This document shows positions 25,129 to 29,531 of a stretch of 64,000 nt of DNA, piece by piece. Position 1 is the stretch's first letter, and each line of letters begins with the position of its first letter. The translations under genes and the position numbers were made by a program. Location of the stretch: NCBI RefSeq assembly GCF_054482525.1, contig NZ_CM137006.1; one strand, 5' to 3'. Under the pieces are notes generated by a model. The model did no database searches and was not told where the DNA came from. It worked only from the letters and a program-made list of their open reading frames with translations.

Positions 25129-26910
25129 TTATTCATAGTGCATGAAGCAGGTTTCAGTCGGTGCGTCCACTGCGTTATCGGCGATATCTTCAAATTCCAT
25201 GACGTTATCCAGTTCGCTGCCCATCGAAATATTGGTCACACGCTCGAGAATAACTTCCACGACTACCGGTACCCGATATTGCGCCATTAAGGCTTTCGCC
25301 TGTTCAAAGGCTGGTGCAATATCTTCCGGTTTGAAGACCCGAATCGCTTTACAACCTAAACCTTCCGCTACTTTTACGTGGTCGACGCCGTAACCGTTCA
25401 CTTCACTGGAGTTAATATTTTCGAACGCGAGCTGTACGCAGTAATCCATATCAAACGCGCGCTGCGACTGGCGAATCAGCCCCAGATAGGCGTTATTGAC
25501 CAGTACATGGATGTACGGAATGTTGAACTGTGCGCCAACGGCCAATTCTTCAATCAGGAACTGAAAGTCGAAGTCACCGGAAATCGCCACCACTTTGCGC
25601 TCTGGATCAGCGGCACACACGCCCAGCGCCGCCGGAATGGTCCAGCCCAACGGGCCTGCCTGCCCACAGTTGATCCAGTGGCGGTCTTTAAAGACATGCA
25701 GCATTTGTGCCGCAGCGATTTGTGACAGACCAATGGTGGTGACATAACAAACATCGCGACCAAAGGCTTTGTTCATCTCTTCATACACGCGCTGCGGTTT
25801 CACCGGCACGTTGTCGAAGTGGGTTTTGCGCAGCAAAGTGCGTTTGCGCTGCTGGCAGTCGGCGACCCATTCTTTACGACACGGCAGACGACCCGCTTTT
25901 TGCATCTCCTGCGCCACTTCAACCAGCAGTGTCAGCGCCGCTTTAGCATCAGAGACAATGCCGAGATCCGGACACAGCACGCGGCCAATTTGCGTCGGCT
26001 CAATATCGATATGAACGATTTTGCGCCCTTCGGTGTATTTCTCTACCGAACCGGTATGACGGTTCGCAAAACGGTTACCGATACCAAACACCATGTCGGA
26101 CGCCAGTAGCGTTGCGTTACCGTAACGATGTGCGGTTTGCAGACCCACCATCCCGGCCATCAGTTCATGATCGTCCGGGATACAGCCCCAGCCCATCAGC
26201 GTTGGGATCACCGGAACGCTGGTCAGTTCAGCAAACTGTTGTAACAGTGCAGCTGCGTCAGCATTGATTACCCCGCCCCCGGCAACAATCACCGGACGTT
26301 CGGCCTGGATTAACATTTCTACCGCTTTTTCGATCTGCATACGGCTGGCAGCAGGTTTGTAGACCGGCAGCGGTTCGTACATGTCAGGATCAAACTCGAT
26401 TTCCGCAACCTGAACGTCGAACGGTAAATCCACCAATACCGGACCCGGACGACCAGAACGCATCAGGTGAAATGCCTGTTGCAGCACGCGAGGCACCAGC
26501 GCCGCTTCACGAACTGTAACCGCCATTTTGCTGACCGGTTTAGCAATTGCTTCAATATCTACGGCCTGAAAATCTTCTTTATGCAGACGGGCGCGCGGTG
26601 CCTGGCCGGTAATGCACAGAATAGGAATGGAATCAGCAGAAGCGGAATAGAGCGCGGTGATCATGTCCGTGCCCGCAGGACCGGAAGTCCCCAGACATAC
26701 GCCGATATTCCCTGCCGTTGCGCGGGTATAACCTTCCGCCATGTGCGAAGCACCTTCCACATGACGCGCCAGAATGTGACGAATACCGCCGTGCTTACGC
26801 ATCGCTGAGTAGAACGGATTGATTGCAGCTCCCGGAACGCCGAAGGCGGTGGTGATACCTTCTTTCTCCAGCACATACATTGCCGCGTCAACGGCTCTCA
26901 TTTTTGCCAT
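25129..26910 (-). CDS. gcl: glyoxylate carboligase
   Basis: ORF 25129-27000; probable start [21 protein letters not shown] (593 aa); ThDP-dependent enzyme. Confidence 0.9.
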
Positions 26911-26930
26911 TTTATTCCTACCTCTATTAA

Positions 26931-26947
26931 TTGGAAAAATTTTCCAA
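26931..26947. promoter_or_regulatory. candidate AllR operator in gcl promoter
   Basis: Perfect 17-bp palindrome ttggaaaaattttccaa about 20 bp upstream of gcl start. Confidence 0.7.
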
Positions 26948-26999
26948 CTTTCAAATTTTGTCAAAAAAACCCGCTCCGCAGAGCGGGATGCGACAGACA

Positions 27000-27815
27000 C
27001 TATGGATGTGCTTTCAGTCCCAACGCCGTGCTGATATCGCGGGCGGTGTCTCTGACCAGCTCACCCTGACTGACAAAACGATCTTCTGTCAGTCTTGATG
27101 AAGGCCCGGAGATGGAGATAGCGGCAACAACGCTACCTACATCATCGTAAATTGCTGAAGCTATGCAATTCAGACCTACAACATGCTCTTCTTTATCTAC
27201 GGTATAGCCCAGTTCACGCGCTTGTTCCAGGTCCTTCAGCAAGGTGGGCATATCCACAAGCGTAGTTGGCGTAAACTGCTGCAAACCGGTTTGCAGAATG
27301 ATGCTCATCAACTCCTCTTCCGCCAGCGGATAAAGCAACGCCTTGCCCGCACCGGAAGCATGCAGCGGCAGACGACTGCCCAGTGGCGCACACATCCTGA
27401 CCATCGATTTACACTCTAACTGACCAATTAATACTGCTTCATTGCCGTTACGAATCGCGACATTGACCGTTTCGCCGGAAAGTAACATCAGGCGGCGCAT
27501 AAACGGCCCGGCGACGGAGAGGACATCGCGGTTATGGATGTACGCCGCACCGACATTAAAGACACCTAATCCTATATGCCACCAGCCTAACTGACTGTCC
27601 TGATAGACAAAATCCGCTGCCTGTAAAACCTTCAGCAAGCGAAAGGTCGTGGAGAGCGGCAAATCCAGATTGAGAGAAATATCGCTAACCGACGAACTCC
27701 CCCCACTTTTTTCCAGATATTGCAGAATCGCAATTCCCCGCTCTAACGCCTGTGCGCCCTTCTGTGCCACAGGCTCCGCCTGTCCTGGCCTGCCGCGCCG
27801 TCTAACTTCCGTCAT
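27000..27815 (-). CDS. allR: IclR-family repressor of allantoin/glyoxylate regulon
   Basis: 271-aa [37 protein letters not shown]...; IclR HTH and effector domain. Confidence 0.9.
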
Positions 27816-27892
27816 ACCTACGTTAACTCCGACCTACAAGTGAGCATAAACAATGAACAATTAGTTTATCTTATGCAAGTCGGTTGCAGGCG

Positions 27893-28375
27893 TCACGCAA
27901 AACAGAGTTCCTGTTCAGGAATACTTTCAACATCACAGTTGTCACTGCCGCCGCGATCGATGGTCAGAAAATCGGTGACGCGCTGCCAGGCGAAAAGTGG
28001 GTGATGCCAGACGTTACGATGGTAATTCACTCCCTGTTCGCCGTTGGTAATAAACGCCCGCAGCGTTGACAGGTCTGGTTTGTCGTCACCTAACGCCACG
28101 ACCACCACAAACACTTCACCTTTCATCGGGATAAACGCCTGTGTACCCAGCGGATGACGTTCGAGTTCGTGAATGGTCAGCGGCAGATTCGCCGGTTGCG
28201 CGCGGTTAATGCTGATGAGCGTACGGTCTTGCTCAAGAATCTCAACCAGCGCCAAATCGTGGTAACGCTCCACCAGGCCATTGTTAATATGGAAAAAATC
28301 CCGTTGCTGCGTTTCGATTACGTCGCCATAAGCACTAAAGGCTTCCTGACTTAACGGTAATACCTGAAGTTTCAT
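27893..28375 (-). CDS. allA: ureidoglycolate lyase
   Basis: 160-aa [24 protein letters not shown]...; synteny. Confidence 0.9.
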
Positions 28376-28480
28376 CTTTTTGTCCTTATAACATAATTCC
28401 GTTCAACCACCGCCGACCGGTCAGCTTGGTTTCAATAACAGGCAATCTAAAACCTTAAGAGAACAACATCAACACAAAAG

Positions 28481-28497
28481 TTGGAATATTTTTCCAA
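28481..28497. promoter_or_regulatory. candidate AllR operator in allA-allS divergent region
   Basis: Near-palindrome ttggaatatttttccaa, same family as the gcl-promoter palindrome. Confidence 0.65.
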
Positions 28498-28604
28498 AAC
28501 TAGATTTAGTCCACAAATTGAACAGGGTTATCATGTAAAAATACTGATAAATCAGAGGATAAGAAAATCACGCAACTTGCGGATTTAAAAGGGGATACCT
28601 GAAG

Positions 28605-29531
28605 ATGTTCGATCCAGAAACCTTGCGGACTTTCATTGCGGTTGCTGAAACAGGAAGTTTTTCAAAAGCGGCAGAACGATTATGTAAAACCACGGCGACG
28701 ATCAGTTATCGCATTAAACTTCTGGAAGAGAATACCGGAGTGGCGCTGTTTTTCCGCACGACTCGCAGCGTGACGTTGACAGCGGCTGGCGAGCATCTAC
28801 TTTCTCAGGCCAGAGACTGGCTGAGCTGGCTGGAAAGTATGCCCAGCGAGCTGCAACAGGTGAATGATGGCGTGGAACGCCAGGTGAATATTGTCATCAA
28901 CAACCTGCTCTACAACCCCCAGGCCGTCGCCCAGCTGCTGGCGTGGCTGAATGAACGTTACCCCTTTACCCAGTTTCACATCTCCCGACAAATCTATATG
29001 GGCGTCTGGGACTCGCTATTGTACGAAGGTTTTTCACTGGCTATCGGCGTCACGGGAACCGAGGCGCTGGCAAATACCTTTAGTCTTGATCCCTTAGGAT
29101 CGGTGCAATGGCGCTTTGTCATGGCGGCGGATCATCCGCTGGCGAACGTTGAAGAGCCGCTAACAGAAGCTCAGTTGCGTCGCTTTCCGGCGGTCAATAT
29201 TGAAGACAGCGCCCGCACCTTAACCAAACGCGTCGCCTGGCGATTGCCAGGGCAAAAAGAGATTATTGTTCCTGATATGGAAACGAAAATCGCCGCCCAT
29301 CTGGCGGGCGTTGGCATTGGTTTTTTGCCAAAATCACTTTGCCAGTCAATGATTGATAATCAACAACTGGTCAGCCGGGTAATCCCAACGATGCGCCCGC
29401 CTTCGCCATTGAGTCTGGCATGGCGCAAATTTGGCAGCGGCAAAGCGGTAGAAGATATTGTGACCTTGTTTACCCAACGCAGGCCGGAAATCAGCGGATT
29501 TTTAGAAATTTTCGGCAACCCACGCAGTTAA
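28605..29531 (+). CDS. allS: LysR-family activator of allD operon
   Basis: 308-aa [29 protein letters not shown]...; LysR HTH. Confidence 0.9.

Follow-up and report, generated by a model that had tools for sequence, protein, structure and literature searches.

Two 17-bp palindromes on either side of allR in the analysed DNA, a window of 64,000 nucleotides, are almost certainly the two high-affinity AllR operators of the E. coli allantoin (ALL) gene cluster. One lies in the gcl promoter and the other in the allA-allS divergent region. A sequence-only reading had already proposed them as AllR operators, and this assignment is borne out by their fit to the published motif, the identity of the locus, the presence of an intact allR and the conservation of the sites. 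AllR binding and the response to effectors are taken from the literature, and the match of the window to the published sequences was computed here. The operators as such were already known, i.e. the AllR sites, the motif and the regulatory logic were described between 2002 and 2008 and later entered motif compilations. What our analysis adds is that the half-sites TTGGAA and TTCCAA are essentially invariant from Escherichia to Providencia, and that the terminator, promoter, operator and ribosome-binding site in front of gcl also keep their compact arrangement. Otherwise, it brings no new knowledge of E. coli biology; the regulatory signature is recognisable from the raw sequence.

The allantoin cluster and the palindromes flanking allR

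The window harbours the E. coli allantoin cluster in an orientation reversed relative to K-12. Several RefSeq E. coli chromosomes annotated with gcl, allR, allA and allS match the region from 26700 to 28800 with 100 % identity. The region is present in 5,401 of the 5,426 complete E. coli genomes, and its intergenic parts are near-identical to those of K-12 (Table 1). The AllR protein encoded between both operators is 100 % identical to K-12 AllR, contains the Pfam domains HTH_IclR and IclR_C and matches the solved AllR effector domain (PDB 1tf1, E = 2e-110). The gcl operator is found inside the 89-bp allR-gcl spacer, where it spans 21-37 nt ahead of the gcl ATG and is centred 29 nt ahead of it. 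The second operator lies mid-way between allA and allS, in a divergent region of 229 bp, at distances of 106 and 108 nt from the two start codons.

Table 1. Genes, operators and associated elements of the allS-allA-allR-gcl region, with window coordinates
Feature	Position	Strand	Evidence
gcl (glyoxylate carboligase), first gene of the AllR-repressed gcl operon	25129-26910	-	RefSeq and K-12 annotation; start codon set by K-12 alignment
Equivalent of the 82-bp K-12 AllR-repressed gcl promoter fragment	26918-26999	-	Primers PgclinsF/PgclinsR (PMC13300388) mapped by K-12 alignment
AllR operator, gcl promoter, TTGGAAAAATTTTCCAA	26931-26947	.	Sequence, motif match, conservation
Intrinsic terminator of allR and of the sRNA AllZ (stem 26970-26987, then T tract)	26963-26987	-	Terminator scan; end of K-12 AllZ annotation; hairpin kept in orthologous loci
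allR, IclR-family repressor, 271 aa	27000-27815	-	ORF, K-12 identity, Pfam, PDB
allA (ureidoglycolate lyase), reads away from the second operator	27893-28375	-	ORF, RefSeq, K-12 annotation
Predicted allA core promoter: TTGATG 28467-28472, 17-nt spacer, TAGATT 28444-28449	28444-28472	-	Inference from sequence; both hexamers conserved across genera
Equivalent of the 37-nt AllR recognition sequence (palindrome with 10-nt flanks)	28471-28507	-	PMC13300388, quoting Rintoul 2002
AllR operator, allA-allS divergent region, TTGGAATATTTTTCCAA (K-12 TTGGAAAAATATTCCAA on the other strand)	28481-28497	.	Sequence, K-12 identity, motif, conservation
allS (LysR-type activator of the allD and allF operons), reads away from the second operator	28605-29531	+	ORF, RefSeq, K-12 annotation; PMC12535856

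Both 17-bp sites lie exactly where the sequence-only reading had placed them and are near-identical, as it had claimed. Its description of both as palindromes holds in full for the gcl site, a perfect palindrome of 8+1+8 nt, and in part for the allA-allS site, in which one arm position is mismatched and seven of the eight are complementary. Compared on the + strand, the two sites share 15 of 17 bases, and reverse-complementing the gcl site raises this to 16 of 17. The pattern that they have in common, TTGGAA-N5-TTCCAA, i.e. TTGGAANNNNNTTCCAA, has exactly two matches in the 64-kb window, namely these two palindromes, and was matched in none of 100 dinucleotide-preserving shuffles of the window. 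When up to two mismatches to TTGGAA-N5-TTCCAA were allowed, no third site was found in the window, with 2.6 matches expected by chance at this threshold. Since chance matches are to be expected at the looser threshold, the weight of the finding rests on exactness and placement. Likewise, a lone perfect 17-nt palindrome is not rare, about one being expected per 64 kb by simple arithmetic under uniform base composition. The signal is therefore the occurrence of the same 12 specified bases twice, in both control regions flanking allR. A chance palindrome was ruled out by the shuffles (0/100) together with the cross-genus conservation described below.

Agreement with the published AllR sites

The AllR motif has been given as KTTGGAAWAWTWTTCCAAC (PMC8222616, Suvorova and Gelfand, Table 1, citing Rintoul et al. 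2002). The allS-allA site agrees with it throughout (19/19), and the gcl site, read on either strand, agrees at 18/19. In addition, a 37-nt ‘AllR recognition site’ has been quoted from Rintoul 2002 as AAATCTAGTTTTGGAAAAATATTCCAACTTTTGTATT (PMC13300388). This is K-12 sequence, and it is the reverse complement of window positions 28471-28507 at 36 of 37 bases, the single mismatch falling outside the palindrome. Regarding allS-allA, the quoted recognition sequence thus coincides with the palindrome proposed from the sequence and does not map elsewhere in this region. For gcl, an 82-bp K-12 fragment served as the AllR-repressed gcl promoter in a lux reporter (PMC13300388); when placed on the window, it has the gcl palindrome at its centre.

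According to the literature, gclP is bound by AllR, allA and allS are both repressed by AllR (PMC12535856), and AllR is freed from DNA by glyoxylate, with allantoin strengthening the repression. No AllR site has been predicted for allD-allF (PMC12535856), with which the lack of a third site at two mismatches in the window agrees.

In comparison with the K-12 AllR operators at gclP and allS-allA (Rintoul et al. 2002), the window shows the same genes, positions and motif. The allS-allA operator is identical to that of K-12, as is the AllR protein, and the gcl operator differs only at the base on the palindrome axis (26939; A versus T, in the direction of gcl), a change that leaves the palindrome perfect. 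One more difference from the K-12 gcl region is found at 26929, i.e. 2 nt downstream of the palindrome and 5 nt past the TTCC of the distal half-site. Both variants of the axis base are also found in other genera, suggesting that this position is neutral for binding.

Conservation of the operators across genera

Scanning for AllR in one genome per species yielded 23 syntenic loci with AllR identities of 66-100 %, distributed over nine genera (Escherichia, Superficieibacter, Klebsiella, Raoultella, Citrobacter, Buttiauxella, Izhakiella, Atlantibacter and Providencia), as well as one distant IclR-family locus that is 28 % identical. In the 23 loci, none of the 44 available orthologous positions lacked TTGGAA-N5-TTCCAA, with 40 exact matches and four containing one mismatch. 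The gcl operator was conserved in 22/22 loci covering the region (21 exact, one with one mismatch), and so was the allA-allS operator in the 22 loci covering that region (19 exact, three with one mismatch). No further occurrence of the motif with at most one mismatch was found elsewhere in these 23 loci, and the motif was absent from the 28 %-identical locus. The site accompanies allR orthologues and is subject to purifying selection.

In alignments anchored on the operator, the half-sites reach 1.98 bits at gcl and 1.94 bits at allS-allA, out of a maximum of 2, the central five bases 1.37 and 1.71 bits, and the 60-nt flanks 0.72 and 0.71 bits, respectively. No other 17-nt window within 60 nt was equally conserved in either region. 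This pattern, in which invariant half-sites containing G/C enclose a variable A/T centre, is what a dimeric helix-turn-helix regulator would be expected to leave.

As a rival reading, IclR, the paralogous glyoxylate-responsive repressor, might bind the palindromes wholly or in addition to AllR and thereby bring about a cross-talk between the glyoxylate-shunt and allantoin regulons. The published IclR box TGGAAATNATTTCCA, known from the aceBAK and iclR promoters, has the core TGGAA-N5-TTCCA and an A/T-rich centre in common with the window sites, which agree with it at 11-12 of the 14 positions that it specifies. IclR, the protein that reads it, is the closest AllR paralogue and, among relatives of solved structure, comes next after AllR itself (1td5, E = 1e-44); glyoxylate acts on both proteins. 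However, the window sites flank allR and accompany it at 44/44 positions across genera, linked to allR and not to iclR or aceBAK, and the literature consulted contains no report of IclR control of gcl or allS. Moreover, the T and A at the two ends of the 17-mer fall beyond the 15-nt IclR box and are nevertheless almost invariant, whereas the T-N-A centre of the IclR box is unmatched in the window sites. With an agreement of 11-12/14 and a location at gcl and allS-allA instead of aceBAK and iclR, the window sites do not qualify as IclR boxes, and we consider control by IclR highly improbable. That IclR might occupy both sites to a measurable degree via the common core appears unlikely as well, although the sequences by themselves are no proof of exclusive binding by AllR; if true, the glyoxylate shunt would be coupled to allantoin and glyoxylate assimilation by shared operators.

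A record labelled Chryseobacterium sp. 18061 (CACSKA010000001.1) was found to contain an allS-allA-allR-gcl locus of the Enterobacteriaceae type, with an AllR 86 % identical to that of E. coli and a layout nearly identical to that of Citrobacter sp. 18056 from the same project. This record is probably mislabelled or contaminated.

Organization of the gcl promoter

Reading towards gcl, the terminator hairpin with its T tract is followed by a -35-like hexamer (TTGACA in E. coli, 26959-26964). The operator comes after a gap of 11 nt and is separated by 5-10 nt from the Shine-Dalgarno sequence (26916-26925), which precedes the ATG at 26910. This layout is kept across genera. The 82-bp fragment comprises the terminator, the -35-like hexamer, the operator and part of the Shine-Dalgarno sequence. 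From the terminator to the ribosome-binding site there are only about 48 nt, the middle of which is filled by the operator. Considering this space and that the 82-bp fragment is sufficient as a promoter, any sigma-70 promoter located there overlaps the operator.

Promoter occlusion is therefore the most likely mechanism at gcl, the overlap following from the geometry and the steric step being inferred. Each helix-turn-helix of an AllR dimer would read one TTGGAA/TTCCAA half-site, and as the half-site centres are 11 bp apart, i.e. approximately one helical turn, both would be contacted on the same face of the DNA. AllR bound to the gcl operator would exclude RNA polymerase, and glyoxylate would relieve this occlusion.

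The hexamers and the transcription start of the gcl promoter are themselves putative. A consensus promoter scan of positions 26850-28700 gave two matches, no more than expected by chance, and a convincing sigma-70 promoter was found for none of gcl, allA and allS. One of these matches overlaps the gcl start codon and was set aside as implausible.

The allR terminator is also that of AllZ, an Hfq-associated sRNA (b4831) that extends from the 3' part of allR through the terminator (K-12 533629-533863; window 26963-27197, - strand), and the T tract leads directly into the -35-like hexamer, TTGACA, of the gcl promoter. Northern blotting confirmed AllZ, which is transcribed from starts of its own at 533631 and 533632 (PMC8175672); these are the only starts listed in the supplements of that paper, with none for gcl.

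A RutR site has been reported upstream of the gcl operon (PMC10163214). With up to three mismatches, the RutR box TTGACCANNTGGTCAA had no match near gcl (26911-27000); its best match in the window lies at 48854-48869, with two mismatches.

The allA-allS divergent region

Based on conservation and spacing, a core promoter is predicted for allA (Table 1), which was not called by the consensus scan, and conservation likewise points to a putative -10 hexamer of allS, TATCAT, at 28529-28534. The centre of the operator is located about 52 bp upstream of both predicted transcription starts. The palindrome itself overlaps neither of the predicted -35 hexamers, and the published recognition region of 37 nt extends just far enough to touch both of them. 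Simple occlusion at allS-allA would consequently need a footprint wider than the palindrome.

The relation of the two sites to the promoters also bears on whether the palindromes could be conserved as core promoter or UP-element, the A/T-rich part representing a -10 hexamer or a spacer, and not as a repressor site. For the gcl site, an overlap with the gcl core promoter is unavoidable, its A/T-rich centre could act as a weak -10, and both sites are A/T-rich, as is promoter DNA in general. However, the same 12 bases recur in the divergent region outside the predicted -35 and -10 hexamers of allA and allS, and invariant half-sites containing G/C around a varying A/T centre are the opposite of a -10 element. 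Together with the assignment of a published recognition sequence and motif to AllR, this leaves the promoter-element explanation with a practically negligible probability, and AllR operators as the preferred reading.

A single operator shared by divergent promoters is a general arrangement for local repressors. The allA-allS region likewise has one palindrome mid-way between the two genes; here, in difference to that arrangement, the operator keeps a distance of about 52 bp from both predicted starts and stays outside both predicted -35 hexamers. One AllR bound to this operator would repress allA and allS together. According to the literature, once allS is de-repressed, AllS switches on the allD and allF operons.

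For allS, a nitrogen or anaerobic regulator has also been mentioned (PMC12535856). On the allS side of the divergent region, two more elements are conserved across genera outside the AllR palindrome, i.e. CCACA at 28511-28515 (TGTGG on the other strand), which lies 14 nt from the operator, and a block of about 27 nt, tatcatgtaaaaatactgataaatcaga, at 28529-28556. These blocks may represent the allS core promoter and the start of its 5' UTR, or the site of this nitrogen or anaerobic regulator.
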